Shown: piece after piece, positions 5,167-61,049 of the stretch
Layout of the letters: every line of letters begins with the position of its first letter
Numbering within the stretch: position 1 is the stretch's first letter
Origin: Menidia menidia
Taxonomy: Eukaryota
Assembly (NCBI GenBank): GCA_048628825.1
Contig: CM109626.1
Coordinates: 17,021,077-17,085,076 of the forward strand
Direction: 5' to 3'
Length of the DNA stretch: 64,000 bases
Translations under genes and position numbers: made by a program
The notes under the pieces: model-generated
The model's database searches: none
The model's input: the letters and a program-made list of their open reading frames with translations, nothing else
What the model was told of the DNA's origin: nothing

Positions 5167-8100
5167 TTCCTTTGACTGAGAAGTCACAACATTAACATAC
5201 TCATCTTACACTAACCTTACTTCGAGGGACATTAAAGCAGGTTAAAAAAAACAATTTACTACATTTACGTTCACTGAATTTATAATGTTTATGTGTAAAA
5301 AGTGATATTCTGCCGTTTATCGTTCCCCATAAGATATACGCTTAAAAATACAATGCCAACCGAGTCTACAATGCTATAATTGGAAATAATAGTTTTTGGG
5401 TCATTTTTACAGTTAGAATTCTCCGAGCTTTACGCTAAATTATATGTTAAAAAAAAAAAACAAATAAAAAAATAAAGCAGCTAGCAGGCGAACATCTAAA
5501 AACACTAAACCCACGCCCGTGTTGAATGTGAACTGATGTTAATCTGTTAATTTTAGCATCCAAACGACAAAAATCACCCGTCGTTGGTGTCGGACGGAGA
5601 CGTTTCACCTACCGGAGTTTTGCAGACGCCGGGCGGACAGCTCTCATCCAACTTTCAGCCTAACAGGAAACCCGCGGCCCGTTCACGGTCAGGAGATTCC
5701 CAGGAGTTTTTAAACTTCACCACACCCGTACCACAACGTCTGCACTCATGAGGCGTTCAGGACGCCGCTAAAGATCGGACATTCCAACTTCACTTTCAGC
5801 GCAGTAACAATATCCAATGCACATTTGATACGTTTTTTTTGCAGTGTAAAATCAAAGCAATATGATTCATGATATTTGTGAACGTGTACTTTTTCTATTT
5901 GGTGTTATCACTGAATCGTTACCTAATTTCAAATGTTTAAAATTGATATAGAAATGGGATATTCATCCTCAAATAAAAACAGATGTATTACCATTTGCAG
6001 CAATATAGTATTTATTCATTTATTTTATAAGGACTTGGCACAAAATAAAATATGCCAAGCTTATGTTTTGATATTCAAATTATTATTATTTAAATATTCC
6101 TTGAGGAATGATACATCTTTTAAGCAATTTTTTTATAAACATATTACTGAGTGGGATCATAAAGACGTGTGAGCCTGTTTTTTATCAGGAAAAGTAAAAA
6201 AAAATTCAATATACTTAGTTTCTTTGTTTACCACTCAAATGAAATGCAAACACTTTTGTGGTCAGAGCAATTTGCAATACTATTGTTACTTACATTTGAC
6301 CTTAAAACCCCAAAAAGAGGAATGGGTCTTGATATAAACAAATGTAAAAAAAGAAATAACCATGTTTTGTGCGGAAAATAAAGATGACATCACACATGCA
6401 CTCCACCTGTGTCAACCTCTTGGGTAAACGACCCGTCCACGTCAGCTTCCCACGTTACTCGGATTGTTTACCTCCATCCTATTATTTCCGACACCACCCA
6501 AAGCTCACATCACTTCACCAGTTGAACAAAGCATCCTAAACAAATCCAAACACGCCCTGAAAGCTTCCGAGCTGCAAACTGGTCTTCATAAAACTACCTG
6601 TTGCGTCAGGAAATGACCTCAGGGGCGTTTAACTGGTCAGACAATGGCTCCAGTTTCAGATGGAAAAGATAGAAGGTCTGAAAGCTAACTCACCTGGGAG
6701 GGAAGGGCGGTGCCACCCAGAAGGTTTTCTGTGTCTGCAGGTGACTGATGCCACATCAGAATCACGAGTGTCACAAGAGTCAGACGATTAACATCCAAGG
6801 AAGCCCAAAATATGATGAGGGCGGCTAGAAAAACAGTAGATAGATTGACCAAGAAAGACGGAGTGGAAAATCCCCGTCTGCAGGTGTGTGCTGAACATGA
6901 GAGAGGACACCCAGGAGATCATGTGTAGATGTATAAATAAGTTAAAAAACATTGGGGTTTTTTCCCAATTGAATTAAAAGGTTAATTACAGATGACACAA
7001 GATAATAATTCCAACATGAATTTGACAGTGTTTTTTATTGTTGTACGCATCCAAGCAATTTCTTTAATTTTATCCCAAAATTTGACAGCTGAAATGGCAA
7101 ATGTTGAAAATGATTCCTCATTTCCCCCCCCCTACAACAATTAATGCTACCATAAAAACAAAATAAGAGTATCTAATAGTCTCCAGCAGGTTTGTCTTGG
7201 GTGTGAAATTCATCATTAAAGCTCCCAAAATTGTGATGTGTAAAGTGAGCCTCACCTGCATCTTGGGGCTCATGTGGACCTTACCTCACTAACCTAGTCA
7301 GAAAAACAGCTAAAGAAGGGGGGGGAAAAAAGCCTCTGACCTCTGAACTCTTTATCTGAGCGTCCGTGGGAAGCAAGCTCAGTGCATAAAGAGCCTCCCC
7401 ACCACCCACAGGGCTATAAAAGATGCCTTACTGCCCCAGGACTCCTTCAGATGTTCCCATGCCACACCCTGACCGGTCCGAGCTCAGTGTGAGGGCAGGT
7501 ACTCATAATATTTTGGCTGGCGAGTGGACCAAAGCCTCAGGAATCCTAACGGCGGAAACATCAATCCAGATGGTCCTTTACCTGGTGTCCTTCACAAAAC
7601 GCACAGACGAAGATGACAAAATGGGGCTTCATTTAACATTTATTTACACGTTTAAATTGCACATAAAAAGTTTCCCTGACTGATCAAATCCAGCCAGAAG
7701 AGGAAAAACAAAACAATAAATAGGAGTTAGCTTCAATCAGAGCCCAGAACAGCTGACCCAATCGGAGCACAGCAGCCTAACGGTCTGATGAAGCAAAAGA
7801 GATGTAACACAGACAATAAATGTCCAGAAGTGTATTTGATCAGCATCTGAGACAGCCTGAGGCCCCCAGGTTTCCTTCACCTGATGACCCCAGGGTGCCA
7901 TTACAGACTCAGACAGTCGCGTTTAGTTTTCGGTCAAATAAAAATAGAATTTTAAAAAAGACAGACACACAAAAATAGGGTTAAAAACAGGACCGATGAC
8001 CAAATGCTGTCAGTTCAGCGCACCAATGCTAGCAGCACATTTAATCAGCGTATAATCAAACGAAAAAACACATTATCTTCATCAAAGGATTGGCGGATCT

Positions 8101-8706
8101 GGTTAGTTTGTGCATAATGTATTGCCTTTGGCCCAATAGCTGTTTTAAACATTATTCAGGACATTTGTTGAGTATAAACAGCTCTTAGTTTACAATGAGT
8201 GTGAGACCAGAATCAAACTTAATAAAAAAGCTTTGTCCACAGACTGGTGGAGTACTTGTCCCACTTTGGCCTTTTGAGGGGCTCTTTTTGTACGATCTGA
8301 GTTCATTCAGATCATCTGAGGCCGTCTCGCTTGATCTGAACAAGCAACCTGAAAAGCAGCTCAGCAGCACGCTGCCCCTTTCAGGACGCCCTGTTCTTCA
8401 GTTAGTCAGAAAATATTTACTGCATCATCTCATTTTACCATATTGGTCCGTCTAACTCTAACGAAGCCTCTGTTACCCATTTACTGAAAACATCTCCACA
8501 AGAGAAGTAGTTAAAATAAAACAGCTCTGTTTACACCACAAATCTCAGTTCCAGTTATTGTGGCGCACATGGGCTGAAGTCGGTTCCCTGACAGACAGCT
8601 GGCAGAGGCCGACTTCTGCCCGGTGGGGACTGGAAATGCCCCGGACAGTTTTAGTTTTAATAAAACCCCAAGAGAAGCCGTCTGGCCTTGAGAAGCTAGT
8701 TGGGGC

Positions 8707-10533
8707 TCACACGTATTCTCTGCTCTCCATGTCTTTCTTGATGGCTTTTTTAATGCGGTCGATTTCGTCTTCGTCTGAACTGTCGTACTTGTCGTATTTC
8801 TCTTTGGTGCTTTCGTCGCCGGCCGTTTTTTCGTCGCCGGCCGTGTTTTCGCCGGCGTGCTCGGGCGTGGTGGACTGCAGCTCCTCCCGGATGCCGTTCA
8901 GCTCCACCAGGCCGTCGTGCAGCTGCGTGGCCACCTCCCGGATTTTGGCGGCGAACTCCGACTTTGCCCCCTTCTTGAGCTCTTTGGAGTCTTTGGCCAC
9001 AAAGTAGATGTCCATGCCCACGAAGAGGCCGGTTAGCACGCCGGTGGCCATGCTGGCGATCTGGACGGCGCGCGCCGCCGTGCTGCCCGCCACGTTGGCG
9101 ATCTGCACCACGCGCATGATCTCGTTGGCGTTGATGAGGATGGCCTTCCCGGCCATGGCGCCGTCCTCGTAGAAGCTGCTGGTGAGGGCGGGGAAGTCGC
9201 GATTGTAGGCGTGCTTTTTCATCTTGATGAGGTCGAACCGGCGCAGGTTCTCGATCCCCTGCTTGATGAACTTCAGGCCCTTGTTCAGGTCCACCATCTT
9301 CTCCTGGTAGTCCTCCACGATCTTCTCCACCTTCTTGCGGTCCATGGAGTTGTTGACCTGGTTGGAGATGCCGGCGCCGGCCGACGTCAGGCCCCCGGCG
9401 GTGGCCACGCCCAGGCCCACCGCCGTCACGATCAGAGAGGTTCCCATGGTGACGGGGGCCAGGGCCAGGCCGGCGATGGTGGCCACGCCCCCGATGGCGC
9501 TGGTGGAGCCGCCGGTGATCTGAGCGATCTTGGTCTTTTTGTTGAACTTGTCCAGGGCGTCGGCGATGCCGTTGAGGTCGATGACGTGCTGCCACAGGCT
9601 CTCCGCCCGCTCCGAGAACAGCTTGTTGAAGACGCGGATGCCCTTCTGCACTTTCTCTGCCGTCACCGCGAAGGCCCTGAAACGAGGGAGGACAGATCAG
9701 ACCTGTTTCACCAGAGGGTAGCAGAAAAGTTCTGCAAATCTAAACAAATATGAATCTCTAGAGGTGCAACAAATGTAGCAATATTTCTACATTTATGTTC
9801 ACTTACTTGGCTTCTTCTTTTTCTGTCATGTCGTCAACTTGAGGCGTGTCCTCCCATCCTGCCAAGGTAAATATTGAATAATATTTGAATTATTGTTCAT
9901 CTGTAAGAGGGCCAAAGCATGTGGACGTGAGATCAAGAGGCCCATGTTGAGACTTGGGCACCTGGCTAGTTCACAGACTGCCAACAGTGAGGCCAACCTC
10001 TGACCTGCAGCCCAAAGAGGTGCCAGAGTCCGATTAGAACGGCCAACACAATAATGTAAGAAAATCGTTTAAAATGTTGTTTTTAAACAGTATATTATGG
10101 AAATTACCTTTTTAAAACGGTTCTCTATTGTCTAAAACTGTCTGCAGGATGATTTCCACTCATGACTTAAGCATCCACACACTGGGATACCAACAATGGT
10201 TGGTACCAACACACTTTAGCTCATACAGATTAGTGTACACAGGTGAAAACGACTGGAAGGCCTCTTGCCTCTGAACATAGAGGGAAAAAAAGGCTAAACA
10301 AACCTTCCACCGTGTTCCACCAGTCCATGAGATCCTCCACATCCTGAGAAAGAAAAGAAGTTGGATTTGATGGAGGTTTTCATGGTTGCTATCCACAGAA
10401 ATAAAGCCGGATTCTGTTTTAAGGCAAGTTGGCATACTTTGTTTCAGAGACTGACCTGGCTGTTTTCAGGCTGTGAGGGTTCAACACGGAAGTCCTCCAG
10501 TTGGTCAAAGAGAGACCTGCTGGCACCTTCACT
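8707..10533 (-). CDS. Apolipoprotein L (ApoL) family gene. Exons (minus strand): 10456-10533, 10304-10343, 9807-9858, and 8707-9676 (terminal exon with stop at 8707-8709). The 5' end is not found.
   Basis: The 319-aa terminal ORF contains the ApoL hallmark region ...AQITGGSTSAIGGVATIAGLALAPVTMGTSLIVTAVGLGVATAGGLTSAG... The flanking helices (KVQKGIRVFNKLF..., DRKKVEKIVEDYQEKMVDLNKGLKFIKQGIENLRRFD) parallel human APOL1. Upstream, the acceptor tttcag sits at 9677-9682. Exon 9807-9858 has a gtaagt donor, and exons 10304-10343 and 10456-10533 join in frame. Together they give ...SEGASRSLFDQLEDFRVEPSQPENSQ|DVEDLMDWWNTVE|GWEDTPQVDDMTEKEEAK|AFAVTAEKVQKG... Confidence 0.8.
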
Positions 10534-11859
10534 CTAAGAAACAGTGTAAAAAAACAAGTCAGACAAAGGGAAACGCATCGAGTGCGAGAATCTAAATAAA
10601 GATAACGAGGTGATTTTGTTTCCTCAGTTTCACTTTTTATAAAGTTTCTGTAACATAAAAAAAGGAGGAAGTGTAAAAGGGATTAGTTTTTTCAGAAGCA
10701 AAAAAAAGAAGAAAGGAAAACACAATGAGGCAGAAAAACAAGTCTGGGCACATGTGTGACATGTGTGACACAAGTTATCTGCCATGGTTAGGGCGAGTAC
10801 CAGCACAGATCACTGTGAGTGGGCGGGTTTCAGGACAAAAACAGAGCAAAACAGAAAATCACACAACAAAAGCTTCTGTCTGGAGCTGAGGGGCCTTCAG
10901 GGTGTGACCTGAGATAGACCACAATGAGAGCGGTTTCAACAGTCTGGTGGAGGAAAAACCCCGACAGGCCAGGAGAGGAGAGATTAAGATGGGCTTTTGC
11001 GGTGCGTTTAATTTCCCCACCTCTGCTGTGTTGCCTTCAGGGCCGCCTTCAGCATCGCCTGGTGTGCGCTTTTGAACGACTTTAGCCTGAAAGCAGGGAC
11101 GACAAAAACACACAAAGTTAAACACAGCTAGCTTTACTACTGCGGTAAATAACAGGAGAGGGGTTATGTATCCCATTGGAAAGACGAAAGACAAATAGTG
11201 GACAGACCAGCCCGAGGCTGCCCTACAACAGCAGACAAAGAAACAAGACAATATGAGGGATTTTAAAGGAACATTAGACAGAGGCTTCTTTGGGAGTTAC
11301 TTGTCAGTACACTTCAGAAAATTCATAAACATCTCCCACGCCACGGAGGAACATTCCCAAAGTAATAATGGGTGTCTATAAAAAAAAAAAAAAGTTAATC
11401 TTGTTATTTCCTCTAAAGACAGATAAAAGGAGCCAAAACCAGTTTTACTGCATCAGATCGAATAACCTGTCTGTTTGTCTTCCCTAACTTTTTTTCTTTG
11501 GGCATGACTTTGCTTCTAGATTATTTTCCCCCCTTGCTTTGGCTTAAGGTACTTTTTGGACAAACCCCCGCTTTCTTATTATGAACAACCTAAAGCTCAA
11601 TTGCCTTGTATCAGTCAGAGGAAGAAGAACATTCAGGTTTTACCAAAGGACACCGAAAAAACTAAAATTCATGTCTGCTCATTTACATGTAGACATTTGG
11701 TTCACAACGAAGCACAACTGCATGTGTCTGCTTATTTTTATATTTCTGTGGGAGCGGTTGAGTTATTCTCAGAGGGATTATACAAATTGTCTCCTCAAAT
11801 TCCCATCTGAGCAAAAACACACAGGACACGAACATGTTTCCACCTGCCACATTCCTTAA

Positions 11860-14800
11860 ATTTTACCTTGACCCGAGGCATGAAAGGATTGTGCCTCTTT
11901 GGTTTCTTGACGTTTGTCTAAAATAAAAAAAAACAGGATTGTAGTGTTATCATGATGAAATAACTCCTTTTGCAGCTATTACAGTTAAATCAGCATTTAT
12001 TCTGGACAGCAGCGAACACACAAAACACACAATGCGCAAAAAGGGAACCGGCAAACCTCAGTTTTGTCCTTTCCCTCTTCTTCTGTCGCTCCCTCTTTGG
12101 ATGAAGACTCCTCTTCATCTTTAAGTTCCTCATCATCAGATGCAGTCTAGCATTAATAACACAGTAAGAACAAGGAAATGGAGATGTGAGTGTCTAAAAT
12201 AGGATAAACAATAATTTTCTGTAATGAATAATACACAGTATAGAAAAACCCACTTAAAAAGCAGCCAGGCTGTCACGTACCTTCTTAGCAGCATGAGGCA
12301 TGAATGGATTATGATGTTTGTGCTTTTTCATCTTTGTCTACAATCAAAATAAAAATAAAAAGCACAGTGATGATGTGTTAAATAACACAAGAAGCAAAAA
12401 CCTGAAGATCTATATTTAATTCCAGCTGTTCCAGACATATGTAATTTCATGGAACACCTGAGCTAGAAACAGTTCCCTTATTTTTTTTTCTACAGAAAAT
12501 ATGAGCTTGATAAACCCCCTGTTCCATATGTCAGCCACAAAAGGTGTGACAAAAGAGTAGAACTTTGAACAGAATATAAAAACTGTGTATGGAGTGATTA
12601 AATGACCCGGTGACTAATAAAAAGAAAGGAGCTCCATAGAAACGCCCTCTGACAATACCCTTAGGGTGTCGCATATCTTTTGCATGACTTTAGCATGAAA
12701 GGGCTGATAAGGAAGAAGGAACTGAAAACGTAAGGTTTGAATTGAACAAGAGATAAAAGTATCCTGAGCTTGTTTTTCATTAAGGGTTTGTTACACACAA
12801 CAATGGCCTAAACGCAGAGGAAATCTATCCCAAACTCACACAAAACAAAGTGAAAACACCTCTCTGCAGTATAAAGGTTTTTTTTCTCCATCTCAAATCA
12901 GTGAACTCTAAAACCAGTCTGTTGGACCGGCACACTCACCCGTTTACTCTCCTGAGGATCCTCGTCATCATTTTTGGTTACAGCAGATTCATCTTTGGTG
13001 CCTTCATCTTCCGACTGGCACTATAGGCATTTGAAGGCATCATATCATAATTTGTTTGCCCAAGTTAGACAAAATATTCAGTATTAAGAGCAGGATTCTG
13101 CTATTTCAGGCTAAACACTGCTATGTATGCTAATAACATAGACAATGCGTCAAAACATTCAGATTGTTTTACTCTAAAGGAAGAGAGCTAATATTTATCA
13201 GCCAACAGTGTGAGGCTTGTCAGCAACAACAGGAGTTTCTGAAGGTTTTCCTCTTTCCTTTTCGTCCTTGTGGACACAGCTAAACAAAGACATAGCTCGA
13301 CTCATTTCCTCCAAAATCGATCTCTGAGCTACATAAATATCCCAACAGCCTGAGTATCACTCTGTCTGTGTGAAGTCTACCTTTTCCTCCGTTTGTCTAG
13401 GCTTTAGTTTGCTGGGAGGGGACGTCGACTTCATCTCCTGGAACACAGCAGAACGCAGACATGAGAAGCAGAAGTCAGATGACTTTCATTAAAAACACGT
13501 GGCTCCGCTGTACACAAACCTCTTTGGTTGGTCTGGGTGGGACTTTTGGTGTTTCATGTCTTGGCTTCCTTTCCGGCGGCATCAAATTACTTTTGACCTG
13601 GCAATGTCAAAAACACAGACGGACTCAGTGAACCAGAGCAGGAGACGGAGATCAGCGAGCAGGAAGGAGATGAGGAAGACGTGGTTTAAGACATGGAGGA
13701 GGAGGAGCTTCAGGAAATAGTGCATTTTTCTCCGTTCATAATAAGCTTTCAGTGTGTGTGCGTGTGTGTGTGTTGGGTCACCGTTGAGTTATGTGTGAAG
13801 TCATAAATAGACATACCGGCTCAGACTTCTCCAGTTGCTTTCCATTCTCCTCGAGTGTCTCTGTGTCATCAGCGTCATTCTGAAAAATGGACAGGAAATA
13901 TTCCCTCTTAAAGAGTACCAACTGAAAACAGATGAGTTGATCAGTGTCTGAAACACCACATTAGCCAACAGTTTAAATTTCCCGGTAGCAAAGTCAGATT
14001 TGAAATGGTATGAAATTCACGTCAGTCTCCATTAAAAATGTTCTGTTTCTGTTAAGCTGCGAATGAGCCACTGACCTACCGACAAGTCAAACAGCTGTGC
14101 AATCCTCCACATGTTCAGCAGAGTTTAAAAGGCAACACAAAAACACATCAACCACCGTCACCTCTATAATAATGCTGCCACCACTACCCCTGCTTTGATT
14201 ATGCCTGTAATCCCACCACCACCCACATATTCAGAAAGTTACTTTATGTGTAGAGCGGAATGGGTTCAGTTTGGACATAGCTTCAGCCATTGCATTCTAG
14301 GGAGAAAATAGCATCAGAAAAAAAAAATGTTGAGGGGTTAAATTAATACCCGTTTACAGCAGCTATGACAGCTATCAGAGCTGACAGCTACTCTAAGACT
14401 TCTGCTCAGTGTTGTGCTAAAAAAAATGCAGACAGAAACAAGATTTGAAAAAAAATTATAATAAAACTCACCTGTTTGTGGCTTGATGGCTTTTCATTGC
14501 TTGTATCCTCGTCCTCTAATCCTGTCTGCTTCTCTTGCTGTGTAAACACGACAGATTTCGTCAAGATATAACATCTTTTTTTCTTTTATTTATGCAATTT
14601 CATTTAGTCAGGAATTATCAAAAGATTATTCTCATCTTCCTTACTCTGTGAGCAGCTCGGAATGGATTGAGTTTTGTCATCGCGCCAGCCAGTTTACTCT
14701 GAATATAAGACAAAAAAAAAAAAAAAATCTGAAATAAGGTAAAGAGTAAAGACAGCAATGCTTTCTGAACCCCGACTGACCTGTTTGTGACCAGGCTGGT

Positions 14801-17800
14801 TGTCTCCATCTGCAGTCTGCTCATCATTCGTGTTGGAGCTCTTCTTTTTTTTATGTAGAGTAAAACATTAAAACCAACTGTTCATCATTACGCTACAGTT
14901 ACACTTAAATTCAGGCTAGCAGGATAACATGACCTCACCTGTTTATCAGTGTAAAAAGTGCTCTTCATTACTGCACTCACACCATTCTGTAAAGAGAAAA
15001 AACAAAATAAAAAAGCTACTTTAAAGAACAGAATGTTCTGGCGTAAACACTAAACACAGCTCACAACAGCAGCTTCTGCCTAAACATCACGACAAACATG
15101 TGACCATGTGGATCTGATATTCACATGGACCAATAAAGAGATTCGGCTTTTTGGGTGTGCCAACCAACCTGTTTGGCTTTGGGTATCTGTGCTGCAGAGC
15201 TGTTCTCGTTTGAGTCTCCAGAGTTCTCTGCCTTTTCCTTCTCCTGTTGTAAACCCAAGCCGGTCAGCAAACGTGACGACACTTGCATTATGCATGCGGG
15301 AAGAGCAATTCATGAGAATCTAACCTGAGATGATGAGCTGAAAGGATTCTTTAGGAGCTTTGCTGCCACTCCACCCTGAGAGACGAATCAGAGCGGGGAA
15401 AGGTCAAAACTTGACATTATTAACAAACATCTGTATAATCCAAGATCATGTGTACAAAAATAAATATGTGAACAAAGAGAGATTATGTTAAAGATAAAGT
15501 CTTACCTTTGAAGGCTTCTCTGTTAGATTCTCACTGTTGGCAGAATGTTCATCATCCACAGATAAGTCATCCTACAGCAGAAGAAAGTGCACAAAGTCTT
15601 ATTGTAAGATAAAAGTGAAGGAAAACATTGAGTGTTTTGTCTAAAATCCCCTTTTATGAAACGCCTCTGACATAAAGCTGCTGGATATTGGCGAGCAACT
15701 TCAGAAGTGGAAGACATCTGTGACCTTAATACCTGTCGAGGGAAATATGAGCTGAATTCTCTTAGTACAAGATGACAAAATATTAGTTTTTTTAAGAAGA
15801 ATTTTTTTTTTTTTTTAAAGAATGGGACAAAAAATATGTTCACATATAAACTAAATAGATGAACTAAACTTTTGATGTGATTATCTGTGAAAATGTAAGC
15901 TTTTAAAATTCATCTGATCATTATATCCCCAGTTACATACACTACAGGTCATACATGCATTTTCTGACTGTTTTCAACCAAAACTATCAATCACTGCCTT
16001 TTTCAAACACTTTACCTGAGACTGAGATTTGGCACCTTTCCTCTTGAACATGCCACCGAAGCGTCCTCCTTTTTCCTGAGAAATGAACTCAGAATTAGCA
16101 ACATTTTCAGTACCTGGTTCCTGTTTGCTGGCTAAAGATGGAGGCTGAATTCTCACCTTTTTCGGGTTGTCTGAGAGGCTGTCGCTGCTGCCTGAGAGCT
16201 CCTTGTCTGCTGACAAATCCTCCTGAAGGAGGACAAAAGACTGCTGTTTACTGTCATTTCCATCATGACTGAAGAGCAAAGCTGCGACGGAGGTCAACAG
16301 GCTTACCTGGGATTGTGCCTTCGCTCCAAAGAGCTTTGGGGACTTTTTAAACATACCACTGAGCATCCCACCAGACTCCTGTGGCGGACAAGTCACATCA
16401 CAGTTAGAGGTTGAGAACTTATGGGCGCACACCTATAAAAATGGCTAAACCATGTTTATCTGACATAAAAAGATCTTGCTTGTAATTGTGTTAGCAGACT
16501 TTACCAATACTACCTTGTTATTTGAAAGGTCATCTTTGCTTCCTGAGAGCTCGCTCTGAGCCGACAAATCCTCCTGAGGGTCATAAAACATATTTATCAA
16601 ACAACACATTTCAACCAAACCTGTTGGAGGCAAACAAAAAGAGGAGCTAAACAAATACCTGAGACGGCGCCTTTGCTCCACTGGGTTTTGGGGACTTTTT
16701 AAACATACCGCTGAACATTCCTCCCGGCTCCTTGAGGAGGAAAAGCCCCACAGAAGTCTTGTAAGCGGAAGCACACGTTGTGTTTTACACTAAAAACCAC
16801 AGGCTGTGTTTGGACCCGCAGTCAGAGGGACAGGCAGGGATTCAGCGGCACACGTGTGCCAGCGCACATGAAACAGCTGATTCGTGCAGGTTTGTGCTCA
16901 CTCTAGCTAACAGGCACATAAAAAAAAAACTGTCCACTCAGCGACCAGAGCAGCGGAGGCCGAGGCCATGACGGTCCTCTCACTGAGCAACACGGGCCTC
17001 ATACACAAATGTCATTCGTCAGATGCAAACTTTCCACAGAAATCCTCCTTAGAGTTCCTCCTCCCACTGATGCACTGTGGTTTCATTGATTATCAGGGAA
17101 AAAAGGATGTTGAAAACAAAGACTTCTTGGTCAACACGACCCCTTAAGGGTGACTCACCTTTGTGTTGTCAGACAGACTGTCGTTGCTGGCTGAGAGCTC
17201 CAAAAGGTCCTGAAGCACAAACAGAAAAGGTCGAGTGAGCAAACATTAAATCGTTTATTAAACAGCTGATGCTGTGAGCTGTATCTCTCAGCAGGTCCCA
17301 CTGGGAGGATGCAGGACAGAGGAGGACGTTTCACCTGGGAGGGCCGGCGCACATGTCCCGGTCGAGGGGATCGTTTCAGTATCCCACCAAAGATGCTTGA
17401 CTTGTCCTCCAGAGAAAAGCACAGAACGCAGTTCGATTTCACAACAAAATTACACACGTAAACAAAACAAACACACATAACAGAGAGGACAGAGGACTCA
17501 CTTTTGACGCTTTGTTGTCTGTTAAGCTGTCGCTACTGGCGGACAGTTCAGGATTTAGAGACGGCGCGTTTGCCTGTCGGCACAACAAAGATTTCATGTT
17601 GTAATGAAACAGTTTTACTATTAGAGGCAAACAGTATCTAAATAAATTAATCACATTTATTTGAAAAAAAAAGGTTTTGTTTGTTTGTGAAAAGCAAGCT
17701 GACACACACACACACACATTGAGAAGCATTTTTATACAGCAGAACACAACAGCAGGTCCTCACTGATTCATATTTAGACAAGAATTTAATTAAATTAATT

Positions 17801-19570
17801 CAAATTAATTAATTTAATCATAAATGGTTATTAAAAAAAACTCAAACTACAGCCTTGTAAAGCTGTTTTATTTTTCTCTGTTACTTTTGCAGTCTTTCAT
17901 AAATAAATGGTAGTTTTGGAGAGAGTCCGGTCAGTTAACTACAAACCTGTGGCTCATCCTCTGGGGAAGATTTGTTTGTCTTCTTAAACATCCCTTTCAG
18001 CACTCCTCCTTTGTCCTGGAGGATTAACAACGTCACACTCTGATTTGATCAGACGTTAATCAGAAATAATGCAGTGTTATGCTGCTCACCCTGCTGGGGT
18101 TTGCTTCAGCCAAGCTGTCGTCTCCATTTGAAAGATCTCCGTTTACAGAGAAATTGTCCTGCGGAGGCAACGCAAAGCTTGTGTCAATTGATGGAGAATA
18201 TGATTTTATAGGGTTTGTGCCCATTTATGGAAGTGTACAGAAGACAATAAAAATAAACAATGAGATAAATGATAAATAAGTGAGACTAGTACGCTGTGTG
18301 AAGTTTGTAGGTCAAGGGGAAATCAAAAAGGTAAAAGGACAGAAATATGGAAAAATGAACCTGTGCTTTGAGAGATGGTTCTGAATTTTTGGAAGACTTC
18401 TTGAAAATCCCACCAAATAAAGCCGTCTTTTGCTGAATGAAAAGAAAAAAAGAATAACACTCCAATTATTAACATGAAATTAGAAAAAAAAACACTTCGG
18501 TGATGTGATAGCCTATGGCTTACTGGTGTGTGCTGAATATAAAGATGACATGATATATTTTCCAGCTCACATCACGGAGCTCGTCCTCATGTCCAATTTC
18601 AAGTCCATACTTGAAGCTGGTTTCATGTCTGATCTTGACGACTTGATCGTGTTCATTTAGAATGACCTTATATTTATAGCTCAGAGCAAAAATAACTGTG
18701 CGGCCTCTTTGAAAAATCCTTTGAAAGATCACAAACATACTAATGATTCCTGATTTTTTTTTTACCTCAGACAATATGGAAGTGTCAGCATTTTGTCAGC
18801 ATTATACAGTTAAATAATCATTTTTACTTCTCCTATTTGTAGGTAATTTTCTAGTCGCTGAAAAGCGAGATGTGATTTAGGAGTCAGACATGATTTCTAA
18901 AGTCAGTTTGTGAACCTTTGTCCTTTATACAGACCATCCCTTTTAGACTAGCAAAGACTGGATAGAATAGCATAACGACAACAACAAAAAGGTGGCATCA
19001 AATGGTCAAAAACAGGTTTAAAACCATTCAAATAAGGCAAAAATGGTCTAAGACCACCATATGGGCCGCAGAATAAGCATGAACTCGCATATTAGATTCA
19101 AGTTATCACAAAATTTGCAGTTTCAGTACCAATATGAGACACAAAACTACCAAAAACAAGGTAAAATAAGTCAAAACAAGAGGCCCCAAGTCATGTACAA
19201 GCGGCAAGAAATTTAAAAAAACTACAGCCAAAATCAGATTATTCTAACTATCTTCTGGATTGCCTTGTTATGTAAGCACAACCTCACAGTGTAACGCAGC
19301 GTTTTAGCCCCCAGCAGCGTTAAATCCACTCTGGGTGACAATACACCTGTAAGTATGGAGCCATGGTGACTCACAATAACACACGTCCCCGATTACAGCC
19401 CATAGCTGCAGTTTAAAGGGATAATCCGCTGTGTTTGAGGGGGGAAAATGTGGAATTAAGACGCCTCTGCTCTGTCACTCAAGGGGTGGACCAAAGCGGC
19501 TATTAACCGACTTCAGGATAAAAACAAACGAGAAAACACTAAAATGTTAGCTGAAGTTACTCACAGCAAC
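11860..19570 (-). CDS. Unidentified gene made of tandemly duplicated small exons. The 5' half (16020-18420) alternates basic exons (GGMLSGMFKKSPKLFGAKAQSQ, GGRFGGMFKRKGAKSQSQ, EPGGMFSGMFKKSPKP, EDKSSIFGGILKRSPRP, DKGGVLKGMFKKTNKSSPE, ALFGGIFKKSSKNSEP) with Ser/Asp-rich acidic exons (QEDLSADKELSGSSDSLSDN, QEDLSAQSELSGSKDDLSNN, DLLELSASNDSLSDNTK, NPELSASSDSLTDNK). The 3' half (11860-15400) has NPF-containing basic exons (TNVKKPKRHNPFMPRVK, TKMKKHKHHNPFMPHAAKK, QSKLAGAMTKLNPFRAAHR, QGGVAAKLLKNPFSSSSQ) and Asp/Glu-rich exons. The first coding exon is at ~19565-19610 (DRYDNLDLECDGDGGSVA).
   Basis: Each unit has a cag acceptor and a gt donor. Many exons begin with Q and end with ...KQ, so they are phase-symmetric. 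At least 6 basic/acidic unit pairs and at least 4 NPF units were read from the reverse complement. Because the exons are symmetric, the number of units could vary between individuals. Confidence 0.45.
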
Positions 19571-19779
19571 GCTTCCTCCATCTCCATCACACTCCAAATC
19601 CAGGTTGTCGTATCGATCCTGTCAAAACAGCCATTTTATAGATTAAAAGATGTTTAAAAACACCAATAATCCCATTTTTCACCGACTAACGTGCATCTTG
19701 TCGAACGTTAGCCGTTCGTTTTCAAATCTGACCGTTAACTCACCATTCGGCCGGCTGCTCTCTGACGTTTAACGTAGTT

Positions 19780-20130
19780 TTTCAGCCTTTCGAGGAGAGA
19801 TACAAACGTTTCAGGGCTGAATAAGAGTTCTCCCCGTGTTGACCCCGTCGGTTATTTTCACTCTTGTCCGTGTAGTTTGAGGTTGTCCCTCCTCTGAAAA
19901 TAAATAAATAAATAAATATAAACGTTTTAAAAAGGACACAGACTTGAGGTCGGAGCTCGCACGCAAATCCTGTTTTTGACGTGAGGCTGGCGGTATGAAA
20001 AACCAGCTCGTCCCGTTCTCTCTCGTTCACCTGCGCGCGGAGGTCCAGGTGGGGGCGTGTTGGTCTCACCTGGAAGCTGAGGATCACTTCACTGCTCCGT
20101 TCAAGTGCCACTCGGAAACCCAAACTCCCT
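19780..20130 (-). promoter_or_regulatory. Putative promoter and 5'-UTR exon region of the repeat-exon gene
   Basis: There is a locally CpG-containing stretch (cgcgcgcaggtgaacgagagagaacggg) upstream of the first coding exon, and no other gene lies nearby. This is an inference. Confidence 0.2.
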
Positions 20131-21495
20131 TGTTGCCATTGAGAAGAGGCGTTCAGTACTCTGGTCCATAAGACACGCGTGTTTGATACGTACTATTACG
20201 TATGCATTATTTGTATATTTTTATTCTTATAATTAGCATTTACCAAAGCGTAAAATAATTATTCAATATTTTGACATTTTCTATCCAAAGAGTGGTCAAA
20301 ACAGAATTGATGAAATAGTTGAGGGACTTTTGAAATATAATTTTCCACTCTTTGAAAAACTTTAATCATAAAATGAAACTTTTCAGTAAAATGAAAGGTT
20401 AGGAATATTACCATAGTAAAAATTATTGTCTTGACCGGACAGATTTCTTTCTGTTGCCTTTGTTAAACACACTGTTTCAGTCATAAGAGATAAAACTCTA
20501 GTGAAACACCGTCTGTTCTTTTAATGAAAACTTATACCTGAAGAGAGAAGTACACTCTCTGTCAGTTTACAAACTTAAAAGATCAGGACATTACTTAATT
20601 ATATATTAGTTTTACAAGGTTAAAATCAGGTAAATGCAACTTTGGAATCTGATCATATCTGAGCTAAAAAACAGAGGTGTTGCTTAAAATTTCTTGATTC
20701 AATATACCCAAAACCTAACTTCCTGGAACCAAAAACCAGAAGTAATTGTTTTCTATTTGATCTTATCAGTCTGGCACAGTTGAGATTTTAGGTTTCCATC
20801 TACATTTATTGAATTCCTGCCAGTGTTTCAGTCAGGCTGAGGTCTGGACTCAGTGAATGAGAGTTGACCAATTCTTATGGCTGCATAACCAGCCAAAATT
20901 ATCGGCCTCCTCCGTTATGATGACAGCTGGCATGAGGTGTTAATCTTTCACATGCTAACTTAAAGTTTATCGTTTGAAATGTAGCTCTTGGGTAGCTCTA
21001 ATGTCCCTCATATCACCATAAGATCCAGTACTTTCTTTTATCATAGACAAAGTTTTTTTTGTACCTCTGTATTAAATTTTTATCAAGCAGAAATATACAA
21101 GACAAAAAGTGTGAGAATATACAAAGTGAAGCAAGAGAGTTTTAACCAAATTTATTGGGAAAAGGACAGGGGAAAGAAATCATTCATTCCTCTCTCTGAT
21201 TTTTTGCCATTTCATGCTTGAAAAATTTTAAAAAAAATAATATTGCACGATATTTGAAGTGTACATTACTTTGAACACTTTCTGAATCAAACATTTCACA
21301 TAACCTAAAATAAGGCCACCTGTAAACACAAAAATCCTCGTAAATCTGGGCCCCGGATTCCCTTTTAAACACATTATTGCTTTTAATAAATGAAAAAAAA
21401 AACAATAAAACAAAAACTATCTCATACAATCGTTGGTACATGCAATGATAATGAGGTACATTTCCATTCAGGCTATAGGGTGTAATATAGGAAGG

Positions 21496-57700: not shown

Positions 57701-59922
57701 AGGGGAGGAAAAACACACTGAGGTGTCCCGCCATCCCGAAGCCCCGGGGGAGACCGGCTATCAAAGGCACCTTTTCGTTGGCGCTGTAATCCACGAACAC
57801 CATGTCGTACTTCCCAGCCACTTTCTTAAAACTGTCCCGGCTTTCCCACTCGTTCAGTGTCTTGTTCCGAAACCTGCAGCAAAGGCGTCAGAGTGTCAGT
57901 CAAAGGCCTCCACAGAGGGGCCTCCGCTCAGCGGGGGGGCAGGGTCTCACTTTTGTGTGAAGAAATCCTGGGCCTTCAGCAGGTCCCCTCCAAAGGCTGT
58001 CAGGCTGCTTTGGCCGACTTTGCCCACTGTGGAAATATCAGACGCATCGCTGAGAACATTTCCGGCTGATCAACCCAGTACAAAATGAGTAATGGGTGGG
58101 CGGTGAGGTCACCTCGGCCCCATCTCAGCCACACGCTGTAAGCCTTGGAGCTGTCGTCCTCCAACAGCTGGATCAGGTAGTATTTGTTGTTGTTGAACTG
58201 AAGGTTTGTCTGCAGAGTAAAAGTTACAAAGTGTCTCTTTTAAGCTAAAAAAACATTCATATTCAAACTAAAATAAAGCTTATCAAAGCCTAAAATGTGT
58301 CTTCAGTCCTCTCAGAGTAAACACCATGAAGATAAAAAACCTCCAGACTGTATTTTAAAGTGGGATAGAAATGGATTTAATCTGTGCTAAAACTCTTGCA
58401 TGGCTCTATTAATAAAAAAGCAGAAAAGACATTTCCAAGCTGGTGGTTTTACCTGGTTCAGCATCACATCATAGACATCTTTTCCTTCACAGTAGACATG
58501 AGCCTGAAAGAGAAACCAAAAGTTGTGTTGTATGACCACCGTCATGTAAAAATGTGCTGTTCATCGAACCTTTTAGGCCATCTCAACTTTTAGGCCATCT
58601 CAAACATCTTTAGGATTGAAACCCTGACAAAACACCCTTTTCCTTCATATTAGAAACATTTAATATGTATGAAAAGAGGTAAAAGAAAAGCAGGTATATT
58701 TTCTCTCCTAGTTGTTTGCCATTGGTTTGTGCTGAAAAATATGAAGTCACATTCAGACTTGAATCAACATACTTTCACCTTCTGTCTCTGAATAAGAAAG
58801 GATGGCTGTTAGTTGGTGCTCTACTCAAACCTTGAAACCACAATCACGACTACACAGCAGTTTTATGCACCTTTCCTAGTTTGGCTTTGCATTCAGGGTC
58901 CACCGGAGCTTTGCCCTTCATCACCACCGTCCTCACAACCTCTGCAAAGCAAAGACAGATCAGAAATATCAGAGTAAGAAACTCCTGTTTGGAATGTGGT
59001 TCAAAGGAAAGTGTTCCACAGTTACCTTCACTTTTTACGTCTCCTTCGGGCGTTTCTTCTGTTTTCCTCTGTGTCTGGCTTCGCCCTCTTCTCCTCTTGG
59101 CTGCTGGCGGCTCTTTTGTCTCCCCCTCGTCTTCCTCTTTGACTGGAACTGACGTTTGTTCTGGTGCAGCCTGGTCATCAGCTCCATTTAAACTCTCTGC
59201 ACACCACAGGAGAGCAGAAGAGTGACAGAGAAAATAAGTACTGTATATTTATACAAGCAGCAGAAAACCCGACAAGAATTTTGCCTAATTTAAAAATTAA
59301 GGACATCAAATTGGGTAAGAAATCCCACAAGAATCACAGCTAATAAGAGTAAAATGGAGTTATTAAAATCTTATTATCAGACAAAGACAGACTGACACTG
59401 TTGGGACAAAAGTAACACTCCATTTTTTTTCATCTGGCCACTATTAGGTTTTGTTTTGGGACACAGCATTTCCTCCTTGATATCAAGCACATTCTCAGTG
59501 GGGTTTAGTTCTCTCAGGACATTTTATGTTTAACCATCGTTCAGGCTGTAATGCCAGTACTTTAAGTAATTTTCCAGTGGCCTACTGATTTCCTCAGTTA
59601 AAACTGAGGTTGTGACTTCTTGTTGCCTCAGCCGAGTACAAAGGAAAACTCAGTACACACCTAGTTTTACAATCTGAGAGCGGATCTTCCTCTTGTACTT
59701 CGTCTGTGGATTAATCTGGACCATCTTCTTCAGGTCTACTTCATACACGATCCCTGGGCCCAGAGTCAGACGGACAGATGTCTGCCCAGAGGAGACGGCG
59801 GAGTCCAGCTGGGCACAGGCTGAGGGGGAGTACGGCTCCCACTGGCCTTCATCTCCTTTCCACTGCCACACTGAGCACAAACAGACGCAGCGAGGATGCT
59901 TAGAACTTATTATGTCACCCAT
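54758..59922 (-). CDS. parp2: Poly(ADP-ribose) polymerase 2 gene. Exons identified on the minus strand: 59660-59922 (ATG plus WWE domain), 59026-59196 (basic N-terminal region), ~58875-58950, ~58445-58500, ~58108-58210 and ~57940-58030 (WGR), ~57600-57830, ~57250-57680 (helical regulatory domain exons), ~56500-56631, 56309-56408, 56055-56153, 55824-55947, and 54758-54916 (catalytic domain; stop at 54758-54760)
   Basis: There are collinear matches to human PARP2. [16 protein letters not shown]|[17 protein letters not shown]|[32 protein letters not shown]|[12 protein letters not shown] matches [92 protein letters not shown] matches [52 protein letters not shown] matches [57 protein letters not shown]...[34 protein letters not shown]|[18 protein letters not shown]...|[42 protein letters not shown]|DGAVVPMGP...[32 protein letters not shown] matches human ...[34 protein letters not shown]...[29 protein letters not shown]. 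All splice junctions examined are canonical and in phase. Confidence 0.9.
59660..59922 (-). CDS. parp2: First coding exon of parp2, encoding a WWE domain. It starts with ATG in good Kozak context (cacaaATGG), has a donor ctag|gtgtgt in phase 1, and joins the basic N-terminal exon in frame.
   Basis: The translation is [87 protein letters not shown]. It fits the WWE consensus (W-x-W...dGxWxPYsp...LE.A...g...v.l.....Y.vDf..M.Q.N..Tg..R.irR) as seen in Deltex and RNF146. The next exon, 59026-59196, begins with 2 nt that complete a codon, so it requires a phase-1 upstream exon, and this exon provides one. Confidence 0.65.
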
Positions 59923-61049
59923 TTGTGTGGGAGCGATCCATAGATCTAACAACAAATACCTAAAACAGATTAATCACAATGCTTTTTTCCAGACACGTTA
60001 TGCTTATACACAACACAGATTAACAAACAAACAAAATAAGACATCTTAAATAGTTCCATTTTAATAAATTTGGTTTGTTTGGCTTGATTGACTTTGTAAC
60101 CTAATAGGTGTGTGCTGTTTTTCAGAGTTTTGATCTTTTCAGGCTTAAAATTGGAAGCTTTCTGAAATCCTAGTAATCTCTGACATTTTGATCGTTTCAG
60201 TAATAAATAAACAAATGATTTCTTAGAAGCTGGTCAAATTAACTAATGAACACAGCACAGAACAAATGCACATATCATAATATATTATCATAACAATCAC
60301 AATATATGAGTATATGTTATAATAAACAGAATTTGGCAGAAACTAAATCTAATAATTCAACAGGCCCACAGGTAGGCCTGCTGAATTGTTCTCGGGTGTC
60401 GTGCAAACCTTAACTTGTGAATAAAATGATGTCCGGACATGTCTGCTAACCGTTGTTACCATGTCCGGCGAAAAAGGAGCACCAACCTGTTTTCGTGGGA
60501 CCTTCTTCGTTTTCAGCGGTGCTCTGAATTTTATTTCTTGAGCTTCTGGTTCTCCTCATTTTTGCCTACAAAAATATTTAGCTACCAACTGAGTCAGAGG
60601 GACAAAAGTGACAACAAAAACACGGCGGGAAAGTTTATTTCCTGCTTTTTTCATTTCCAGGTCTGTGTCCACTAAAGATCGTATAACATGAAGATGATTC
60701 ATCCCAGTGTTTAAAAGAGACATTTTTTTCAGCACAGGCGTCTTAACCAAAACTAAGACTTTCAACAGTTAATGTTAACTCTAACACAATTACGTGTAAT
60801 GGTTAACAAAATTGTAAAGCATGATTGAAAGAGACAAACTATATGTTTAAACTTCATTTAGATAAAAACGACAGAGTGAACACTCTGTTTCCAAGTGACG
60901 GAACGAAACTTGTCAGATATTTTGTTCCGCTTTAGCTACTGGACGGAATTATTTTCATGAGGGATGCCTGCGCTTAGCGTGTTGCGTCAAGTTGTGGATG
61001 GAAAAAAATGAGTTTTAACTCATTTACACCCTGATTTGATGGTGTTGAC
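59923..61049. promoter_or_regulatory. Putative bidirectional promoter region between parp2 (minus) and mettl17 (plus)
   Basis: The two start codons face outward about 1.1 kb apart. The region contains a CpG-containing segment and a 10-bp perfect inverted repeat, gtccggacatg...catgtccggc, at 60431-60470. I cannot map the TSS. Confidence 0.35.

Follow-up and report, generated by a model that had tools for sequence, protein, structure and literature searches.

We report here on a chain of very small exons on the minus strand of a 64,000-nucleotide stretch of the Menidia menidia genome (assembly GCA_048628825.1, contig CM109626.1, positions 17,021,077 to 17,085,076; hereafter the window, numbered from its first letter). 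It is practically certain that the interval 11860-19570, in which most of these exons lie, is part of the annotated apolipoprotein L1 gene of this fish (the teleost apol1); the micro-exons are the 5' two-thirds of the apol gene and not a separate gene. Our reading of the locus as a whole, to which we assign a probability of roughly 0.85, is that the annotated apol1 gene carries a disordered tail built from duplicated exons and that this tail would serve to tether the ApoL domain encoded downstream. As a genomic object the locus is an ordinary, correctly annotated gene and offers no novelty.

The micro-exons belong to apol1

Rebuilding the exon chain by hand gave a gene of 33 exons on the minus strand, running from an ATG at 19746-19744 to a stop codon at 8707, with canonical splice sites and a reading frame that is unbroken from end to end. 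The conceptual product of 983 aa is identical, by exact comparison, to GenBank entry KAM9720006.1 ("apolipoprotein L1 isoform 2-T2 [Menidia menidia]"), and a protein search with it returned apolipoprotein L1 isoform 3-T3 of the same species at 100% identity and coverage. Pfam recognized a single domain in the product, ApoL (PF05461), at residues 667-921 with E = 8e-36; the match scores 124.4 bits against a gathering cut-off of 25.9 and covers profile positions 43-297 of 298. ApoL was also the sole Pfam match at E <= 0.1, leaving the tail without a Pfam family of its own. A search of PDB sequences with the protein produced no match at E <= 1, a look-up of contigs encoding it gave no record, and no family was matched in an Rfam scan of 8000-20500.

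Within the hand-built chain, 11860-19570 spans exons 3-28 plus the last bases of exon 2, and the chain continues beyond both ends of this interval. The initial annotation had presented the interval as an unannotatable gene of no known family located between apol and tep1; its exons in fact belong to apol itself, and the protein to which they contribute is 100% identical to an annotated one with a Pfam ApoL domain. Our explanation for why the family was missed is that the micro-exons had not been joined to the downstream ApoL exon. The label apol1 comes from automatic annotation, and the relation of the gene to human APOL1, as opposed to APOLD1 or APOL6, rests on that name.

An array of phase-0 exons

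From exon 2 to exon 30 every exon is phase 0-0 and between 48 and 90 nt long (mean 65 nt). The 29 acceptors comprise 19 CAG, 7 TAG, 2 AAG and 1 GAG, the donors are GT throughout, and no exon of the chain contains an in-frame stop codon. The earlier description of a chain of small phase-symmetric coding exons is borne out by these counts. It had also been said that many of the exons start with Q and end in KQ; the ends agree with this (the last codon is CAG, for Q, in 12 of the exons and AAG, for K, in 7) but most of the exons lack an initial Q, the apparent one having arisen through translation of the intronic 'cag' of the acceptor.

In exons 3-14 a basic exon is followed by an acidic, Ser-rich one six times in succession, in keeping with the minimum of six proposed at the outset. 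The basic members have a net charge of +1 to +5 and a core of GGxFxGxFKK, with one or two Phe per unit, and the acidic members a net charge of -1 to -5 and a core of ELSxSxDSLSDN. Five NPF tripeptides are encoded further along, in exons 15, 19, 21, 26 and 28, with Asp/Glu-rich exons interspersed, and here too the initial observation of multiple NPF motifs with acidic exons between them stands. Coordinates of all exons are given in Table 1.

At the DNA level the similarity between repeats is restricted to the exons, which are 61-86% identical and spaced 350-650 nt apart; the introns are unalignable, and Tandem Repeats Finder detected no array, reporting just three tiny AT-rich repeats. A likeness that is limited to exons, with introns that do not align, points to old duplications and not to a recent tandem array, and we conclude that the tail arose by old duplications of phase-0 exon pairs. 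Phase symmetry in all of the exons lets the frame survive when a unit is duplicated, lost or skipped, and this fits both the lineage differences in unit number and the cassette-exon isoforms described below. The locus illustrates cleanly how an array of phase-0 micro-exons can differ in its number of units from one lineage or isoform to another. Arrays of the titin PEVK type also consist of short phase-symmetric duplicated exons and encode a disordered segment whose length is set by skipping and lineage-specific duplication; the gene architecture is alike, whereas sequence, scale and function are unrelated to those of the apol1 tail.

Intron 24 contains a decayed exon copy at 13266-13207 on the minus strand (DEKERGKPSETPVVADKPHT), which has an AG acceptor and a weak gttggc donor and is absent from the five Menidia isoforms. 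The counterpart of this copy is a used exon in Odontesthes and Fundulus (KDKKEKGKPSET..PVVPPRP). It was the sole yield of a tblastn search for unused extra exons in which orthologues richer in units served as queries.

Predicted disorder and conserved motifs in the tail

In an AlphaFold2 model computed from a 40-sequence alignment, residues 1-610 are without secondary structure (mean pLDDT of 31-51 in 10-residue blocks) and helices appear from residue 612 on, continuing through the ApoL domain. Within residues 1-610, just 521-530 (the NPF of exon 26), 570-576 (the start of the NPF of exon 28) and 444 escape being flagged below a pLDDT of 50. On this model, the ~610 residues that the micro-exons contribute at the N-terminus are intrinsically disordered, and one mRNA encodes them together with the C-terminal ApoL domain. 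Together with the exon charges, it agrees with the disordered, repetitive region of alternating charge that had been anticipated. Gly/Ala-rich hydrophobic stretches lie at residues ~716-765 and 855-886, with an AlphaFold2 helix over the second (861-889) and none over the first.

In composition the tail is a near-neutral polyampholyte (charged fraction 0.34, net charge ~0, 18% Ser+Thr) in which charge alternates exon by exon, and it has 26 S/T-x-x-D/E sites. Fifteen of its 17 Phe residues fall in one of two motif types, the basic core or NPF. The number of NPF tripeptides expected from composition in the 604-residue region is 0.07, so that the five observed represent a ~70-fold excess, and 0 of 100,000 shuffles reached five.

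For conservation we aligned the 113 sequences of at least 880 aa found among the best 120 matches listed. The motif cores are at least 80% conserved in this alignment and the linkers are variable, a pattern usually seen with short linear motifs. The cores concerned are F-G-G, F-K-K, E-L-S-x-S-x-D-S-L, K-L-N-P-F-R, K-K-P-K-x-H-N-P-F-M-P-R, E-T-P-x-V-P-P-R-P and A-S-D-D-E-x-L-K. The N-P-F of exons 19, 26 and 28 is itself conserved at 80% or more, and N575, P576 and F577 are invariant in the 40 sequences used for modeling. The best-conserved exon of the tail is exon 28 (mean identity to the Menidia residue 0.83 over the 113 sequences), and exons 30-32, at the junction of tail and ApoL domain, are highly conserved. 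One of these, exon 31 (DVEDLMDWWNTVE; 10343-10304), is near-invariant across teleosts and has a W-x-x-V core with an acidic flank, resembling an LC3-interacting motif; AlphaFold2 models it as the helix that opens the folded part.

Enriched over chance, situated in a disordered region and conserved, the NPF tripeptides are candidate EH-domain ligands of the NPF class. Similarly, ETPKVPPRP of exon 23 fits the class II SH3-ligand pattern PxxPxR within the disordered region, its E-T-P and P-R-P are largely conserved and it is also present in the paralogues, so it may act as an SH3 ligand. NPF is an established ligand of EH domains, those of EHD1-4 having a preference for acidic residues after the tripeptide (PMC13282721); KLNPF is found in a loop of EHD2 itself, KPFRKLNPF (PMC4398442). 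In apol1 the residues after NPF are SSS, RAA, RST, MPH and MPR, with no acidic residue directly following. The NPF-rich endocytic proteins (epsin, Rabenosyn-5, MICAL-L1, EHBP1 and synaptojanin-170) resemble the tail in having several NPF motifs in a disordered segment, the format of an EH ligand. They differ in that there is no homology to the apol1 tail, that the apol1 NPF flanks are basic or neutral and not acidic clusters, and that the apol1 motifs are joined to an ApoL domain whereas those of the endocytic adaptors are joined to ENTH, FYVE or CH domains.

The basic exons had been likened to the polybasic effector domains of MARCKS and AKAP12. The two do have in common strings of Phe and Lys-Lys-Ser (FKKS) and a disordered, Ser-containing context, but the likeness is loose. 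The MARCKS effector domain has a charge of about +13 and five Phe in 25 residues, whereas the apol1 units are far less charged, at +1 to +5 per 20-24 residues, and have one or two Phe. We rejected a relationship to MARCKS or AKAP12 given this low charge density, the Asp at residue 2 (in place of the Gly for N-myristoylation) and the lack of a Pfam match. The membrane, calmodulin and EH-domain binding anticipated at the outset is putative.

The ApoL Pfam domain is common to Menidia apol1 and to human APOL1-6 and APOLD1, with the long repetitive tail on the Menidia side. In human APOL proteins the ApoL domain inserts into membranes and forms (cation) ion channels. Mammalian members of the family are ~280-430 aa long and have short N-termini, with a signal peptide in APOL1, and we know of none described with a 600-residue repetitive NPF-bearing tail. 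A literature search found no paper describing the apol1 tail, nor apold1a or apold1b (the names given to teleost paralogues of the Menidia gene), and a search on apolipoprotein L with NPF and EH domain found nothing relevant.

Distribution among teleosts and reduction in cyprinids

All of the 113 long teleost matches carry PF05461 and most align over the full query; they represent many orders and several annotation pipelines. Among teleost apol1 entries of GenBank and RefSeq (Amphiprion, Cololabis, Alosa and others) the motif order, the junction and the ApoL domain are alike, while unit number and length differ. Counted with a small profile of the basic+acidic pair, Menidia has six units and the apol1 orthologues range from 3 to 12. 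NPF motifs number 2-8 across the orthologues, and protein length runs from ~440 aa in cyprinids to 1,278 aa in Fundulus. An NPF-bearing tail of the apol1 type was found in eels, tarpon, herrings, smelt, salmonids and acanthomorphs, and this range places its origin most likely at the base of the teleosts. None of the matches to which a species could be assigned was from a non-teleost fish (gar, bowfin, bichir or shark).

Shorter forms of the tail occur in characins and many catfishes. The cyprinid proteins are ~440-490 aa long (464 aa in Danio aesculapii, 465 aa in carp) and retain the last NPF unit (KKKPKNPFMPQ), the junction and the ApoL domain; the remainder of the tail is gone. In the cyprinid entries listed, which were searched for D. 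rerio apol1 as well, the genus Danio is represented by D. aesculapii. The zebrafish locus NP_001025309.1, which is apol1 by its authors' naming (orthology to the Menidia gene is not implied), is reported to be 38% identical to human APOL1 (PMC4492502). The available text of that paper and of PMC4854397 gives a 2.6-kb locus that 'lacks a secretory domain' and makes no mention of an N-terminal repeat region.

Transcripts and isoforms

Further support for a single transcription unit comes from a related fish, in which a Logan contig of 4,159 nt (run SRR27393481) contains an uninterrupted 992-codon open reading frame (ORF) with untranslated regions (UTRs) on both sides. The contig aligns across the orthologous exon junctions into the ApoL domain and has no introns. 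It is most simply an assembled transcript, and as such supports one spliced mRNA containing both tail and ApoL domain.

For Menidia menidia itself there are five annotated isoforms (T1 to T5; KAM9720005-KAM9720009, of 984, 983, 983, 966 and 963 aa) alongside an earlier annotation made independently (CAG5896405.1). Three of these models skip whole exons, exon 21 in T4 and CAG5896405.1 and exon 18 in T5. A tandem AAG/AAG acceptor at exon 18 (14843-14841) underlies the gain or loss of one Lys between isoforms. The additional Gln at the exon 15/16 junction of T1 and T3-T5 is producible solely via a non-AG acceptor and is for that reason probably an annotation quirk. In Fundulus heteroclitus the isoforms differ by blocks of 18, 86 and 176 residues, of which the first is one exon and the larger ones are two and four ASDDE...NPF units. 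An absence of spliced transcripts across these exons had been raised at the outset as a possible objection to the chain, and it is answered by the Menidia and Fundulus isoforms together with the intron-free contig.

The two Menidia annotations have an equal exon complement and differ by substitutions, an exon skip, a 17-residue insertion and a 6-aa indel. The initial expectation that copy number would be variable thus holds between species (3-12 pairs, 2-8 NPF) but not, on this comparison, between individuals. Fourteen of the substitutions are in the disordered tail and two in the C-terminal tail, which also has the indel, of the six residues TAGDEK (8707-8900). These differences suggest high allelic diversity with exon number unchanged. 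The 17 additional residues of CAG5896405.1 (QRVASLLAVCELARCPR), located between exons 31 and 32, have their source in intron 31 at 10004-9953 on the minus strand and are not in the five newer isoforms; this stretch may be a rare or spurious exon.

A working model for the tail and its alternatives

Several other accounts of the locus have to be set against an apol1 gene with a long tail. It is extremely unlikely that the exons form a hitherto unrecognized gene of their own that encodes a disordered scaffold and lies between apol and tep1. The tail does lack a Pfam family of its own, and to the eye the repeats stand apart from the ApoL exon, owing to the introns of 780 nt and 487 nt that precede exons 29 and 30, but one continuous frame with canonical splice sites runs from 19746 to 8707, the product is identical to the annotated apol1 protein, more than 100 orthologues have both tail and ApoL domain, one intron-free contig covers both parts in a related fish and the junction exons 30-32 are highly conserved. 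The continuous frame and the identical annotated protein already contradict a gene in that position. A different possibility is that the long models are annotation chimeras in which a gene for a disordered protein has been fused to a short ApoL gene. We consider this very unlikely, even though zebrafish apol1 is described as a 2.6-kb locus (PMC4492502), the cyprinid proteins have ~440-490 aa and some database entries are ApoL-only fragments. Our reasoning for this is that the Logan contig holds both parts in one ORF with UTRs, that NCBI Gnomon, Ensembl/UniProt and submitter annotations concur across many orders, and that the short cyprinid proteins retain the final NPF exon together with the junction that precedes ApoL, which looks like loss and not mis-fusion. 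There is next to no chance that the region is a non-coding satellite, a transposon array or a set of decayed pseudo-exons, as had been allowed for at first. It has a repetitive look and one decayed exon copy (13266-13207), but Tandem Repeats Finder detected no array, the exons are free of stop codons, the protein shows conservation throughout the teleosts and there is no Rfam match; a satellite or head-to-tail DNA repeat with spacers is contradicted by a similarity of 61-86% that is limited to exons. Finally, names such as 'starmaker-like' and 'dentin sialophosphoprotein' among NCBI orthologues, and the many S-x-x-D/E sites, could be taken to indicate a secreted acidic phosphoprotein. This is hardly credible, given an N-terminus (MDRYDNLDLECDGDGG) that is acidic and non-hydrophobic with no signal peptide seen (by eye, no predictor) and the presence of NPF and PxxPxR motifs, which act in the cytosol. 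The names moreover scatter by species (titin, piccolo, ATRX and others), a variation so wild that we read it as automatic naming driven by composition.

Returning to an apol1 protein with a disordered tail, our working model is that the tail acts as a cytosolic multivalent tether of the ApoL domain to membranes and to EH- and SH3-domain endocytic proteins. Read as it is from the motifs, this model is tentative, and we would put it at somewhat less than an even chance. Given that the N-terminus is acidic and non-hydrophobic, with no signal peptide apparent by eye, we assume the tail to be cytosolic. The six Phe/Met-Lys-Lys motifs would give weak yet multivalent binding to acidic lipids of the inner leaflet, and the adjoining Ser/Asp/Glu blocks, rich in S-x-x-D/E, would oppose lipid binding once phosphorylated by acidophilic kinases. 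Through its conserved NPF and PxxPxR motifs the tail would draw in endocytic proteins with EH and SH3 domains, and the outcome would be an ApoL domain placed or held on endocytic or plasma-membrane-derived membranes. With R, M or S flanking the NPF motifs, EH domains of the Eps15/intersectin type would be likelier partners than those of the EHD type.

A number of points weigh against this reading of the locus and its tail. Cyprinids lack nearly the whole tail, which must be dispensable for any core function of the ApoL domain. The overall confidence of the AlphaFold2 model is low (mean pLDDT 41), and the model supports disorder indirectly at best. Transcript support in Menidia itself consists of annotation and not RNA reads. 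With respect to binding, the NPF flanks are not acidic, as EHD1-4 prefer, so that the EH partner is uncertain; a single basic unit (+1 to +5) is much weaker than the MARCKS effector domain; and the putative binding to membranes, EH domains and SH3 domains is deduced from motif classes alone. The main functional rival to a tether is a role as a charge-block spacer or in condensates that involves no specific partners. In that case the tail would be chiefly a block polyampholyte acting as a spacer, or in condensates or self-association through its charge blocks, and its NPF and FKK motifs would do little specific binding. Consistent with this are the charged fraction of 0.34 with a net charge of ~0, the exon-by-exon alternation of charge, a unit number free to vary from 3 to 12 and linkers that evolve quickly. 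Conservation goes beyond charge, however, with individual residues (F, G-G, K-K, N-P-F and P-P-R-P) at least 80% conserved across teleosts and nearly all of the aromatic residues located within motifs, as is typical of short linear binding motifs, and we regard a pure charge-block role as unlikely, if well worth keeping in mind.

Feature coordinates and neighboring genes

Table 1. Exons of Menidia menidia apol1 and adjacent genes in the window
Feature	Position (strand)	Sequence	Remarks
Exon 1, coding part	19744..19746 (-)		ATG is the last 3 nt before the gtgagt donor; 5' UTR upstream
Exon 2, 54 nt	19565..19618 (-)	DRYDNLDLECDGDGGSVA	Conserved acidic N-terminus, non-hydrophobic; no signal peptide apparent by eye
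Exon 3, basic unit 1	18361..18432 (-)	QKTALFGGIFKKSSKNSEPSLKAQ	
Exon 4, acidic unit 1	18090..18158 (-)	DNFSVNGDLSNGDDSLAEANPSR	
Exon 5, basic unit 2	17947..18015 (-)	DKGGVLKGMFKKTNKSSPEDEPQ	
Exon 6, acidic unit 2	17502..17573 (-)	ANAPSLNPELSASSDSLTDNKASK	
Exon 7, basic unit 3	17335..17406 (-)	DKSSIFGGILKRSPRPGHVRRPSQ	
Exon 8, acidic unit 3	17159..17209 (-)	DLLELSASNDSLSDNTK	
Exon 9, basic unit 4	16659..16730 (-)	EPGGMFSGMFKKSPKPSGAKAPSQ	DNA 81% identical to exon 11
Exon 10, acidic unit 4	16514..16573 (-)	EDLSAQSELSGSKDDLSNNK	
Exon 11, basic unit 5	16307..16378 (-)	ESGGMLSGMFKKSPKLFGAKAQSQ	
Exon 12, acidic unit 5	16157..16222 (-)	EDLSADKELSGSSDSLSDNPKK	
Exon 13, basic unit 6	16016..16075 (-)	EKGGRFGGMFKRKGAKSQSQ	
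Exon 14, acidic unit 6	15506..15571 (-)	DDLSVDDEHSANSENLTEKPSK	
Exon 15, NPF 1	15325..15375 (-)	GGVAAKLLKNPFSSSSQ	
Exon 16	15169..15243 (-)	EKEKAENSGDSNENSSAAQIPKAKQ	One additional Q at exon 15/16 junction (15246-15243) in isoforms T1, T3-T5
Exon 17	14939..14986 (-)	NGVSAVMKSTFYTDKQ	
Exon 18, acidic	14781..14843 (-)	KSSNTNDEQTADGDNQPGHKQ	Absent from isoform T5
Exon 19, NPF 2	14645..14698 (-)	SKLAGAMTKLNPFRAAHR	KLNPFR kept in at least 80% of sequences
Exon 20, acidic	14472..14537 (-)	QEKQTGLEDEDTSNEKPSSHKQ	
Exon 21, NPF 3	14243..14296 (-)	NAMAEAMSKLNPFRSTHK	Cassette; skipped in T4, CAG5896405.1 and Fundulus isoform X3
Exon 22, acidic	13817..13879 (-)	NDADDTETLEENGKQLEKSEP	
Exon 23	13520..13597 (-)	VKSNLMPPERKPRHETPKVPPRPTKE	Conserved ETPxVPPRP; fits SH3-ligand patterns PxxPxR (and PxxxPR)
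Exon 24	13381..13437 (-)	EMKSTSPPSKLKPRQTEEK	
Exon 25, acidic	12940..13020 (-)	CQSEDEGTKDESAVTKNDDEDPQESKR	
Exon 26, NPF 4	12281..12337 (-)	TKMKKHKHHNPFMPHAAKK	DNA 73% identical to exon 28
Exon 27, acidic, net -10	12057..12146 (-)	TASDDEELKDEEESSSKEGATEEEGKDKTE	Exon 27+28 unit type multiplied in Fundulus and Poecilia
Exon 28, NPF 5	11867..11917 (-)	TNVKKPKRHNPFMPRVK	Sole NPF unit retained in cyprinids
Exon 29, variable linker	11021..11086 (-)	AKVVQKRTPGDAEGGPEGNTAE	Beyond 11860-19570
Exon 30	10456..10533 (-)	SEGASRSLFDQLEDFRVEPSQPENSQ	First predicted helix starts here
Exon 31, 40 nt	10304..10343 (-)	DVEDLMDWWNTVE	Starts in phase 0, ends the phase symmetry; conserved predicted helix
Exon 32, 52 nt	9807..9858 (-)	GWEDTPQVDDMTEKEEA	Starts in phase 1
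Exon 33, 970 nt including stop	8707..9676 (-)		ApoL domain with Gly/Ala-rich hydrophobic stretches, then acidic C-terminal tail
apold1a-type paralogue, tandem, downstream of apol1	3820->1 (-)	MEACMMKPEVKRKPKP...	First exon 3820-3773; located by tblastn
tep1	~41000-24000 (-)		Upstream of apol1, same strand; TROVE, DUF4062, STAND NTPase and TEP1 beta-propeller matches

Relatives of apol1 were sought in an exhaustive representative search with the whole protein, in which ApoL-only matches made up much of the list, and two further families of long ApoL-domain proteins were found in teleosts. The first of these, named apold1a in several species, starts with MEACMMKPEVKKKPKPPKPPPKP and has 9-13 basic+acidic units. 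It has in common with apol1 the module of basic GGxFxGxFKK and acidic-Ser exons, the PxVPPRP motif and the ApoL domain; it differs in its N-terminus, in having no NPF and in an ApoL domain of ~40% identity that has a long C-terminal extension behind it. A member of this family lies next to apol1 in the window (Table 1), with further small exons between 3170 and 190, and extends past the start of the window. In tarpon, moray eel and Oryzias javanicus, consecutive locus tags suggest that apol1 and the apold1a-type gene are neighbors as well.

The other family (P0179, P0183, P0187, P0188, P0196 and others in the search; salmon, cod, eel) consists of proteins of 1,000-1,450 aa with a C-terminal ApoL domain, whose long N-terminal region is a different one, with a conserved ...RRPSxxxLQNMLKKVSQSPF... 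and none of the basic+acidic units. Elsewhere in the window, an exon of tep1 at ~36260-36600 contains a very long poly-Glu run, and an ORF on the minus strand at 59650-59955 encodes a WWE domain (Pfam E = 5e-18) and is part of another gene.

Implications for the ApoL family

What remains of interest at this locus is the uncharacterized, deeply conserved tail of a fish ApoL protein, together with its near-absence in cyprinids. The tail is an array of motifs of ~600 residues that is conserved from eels to percomorphs, has a module in common with a tandem paralogue and is apparently unstudied. It is conceivable, although we regard it as rather doubtful at present, that the ancestral teleost ApoL proteins (apol1 and the apold1a type) were endocytic or plasma-membrane scaffolds, in which a membrane-inserting ApoL module would be positioned by an exon-encoded tail of lipid-binding, phospho-switch and EH- or SH3-ligand elements, with valency tuned by exon duplication, loss and skipping.

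The reduction in cyprinids has a bearing on model organism work as well. Studies of zebrafish apol1 (PMC4492502, PMC4854397) may concern a reduced form of the fish protein and, if D. rerio apol1 is of the D. aesculapii type, the zebrafish used for APOL1 kidney disease would have an atypical, reduced form. In the teleosts that have kept it, the apol1 tail provides a testable link between ApoL domains and the EH/SH3 endocytic machinery.

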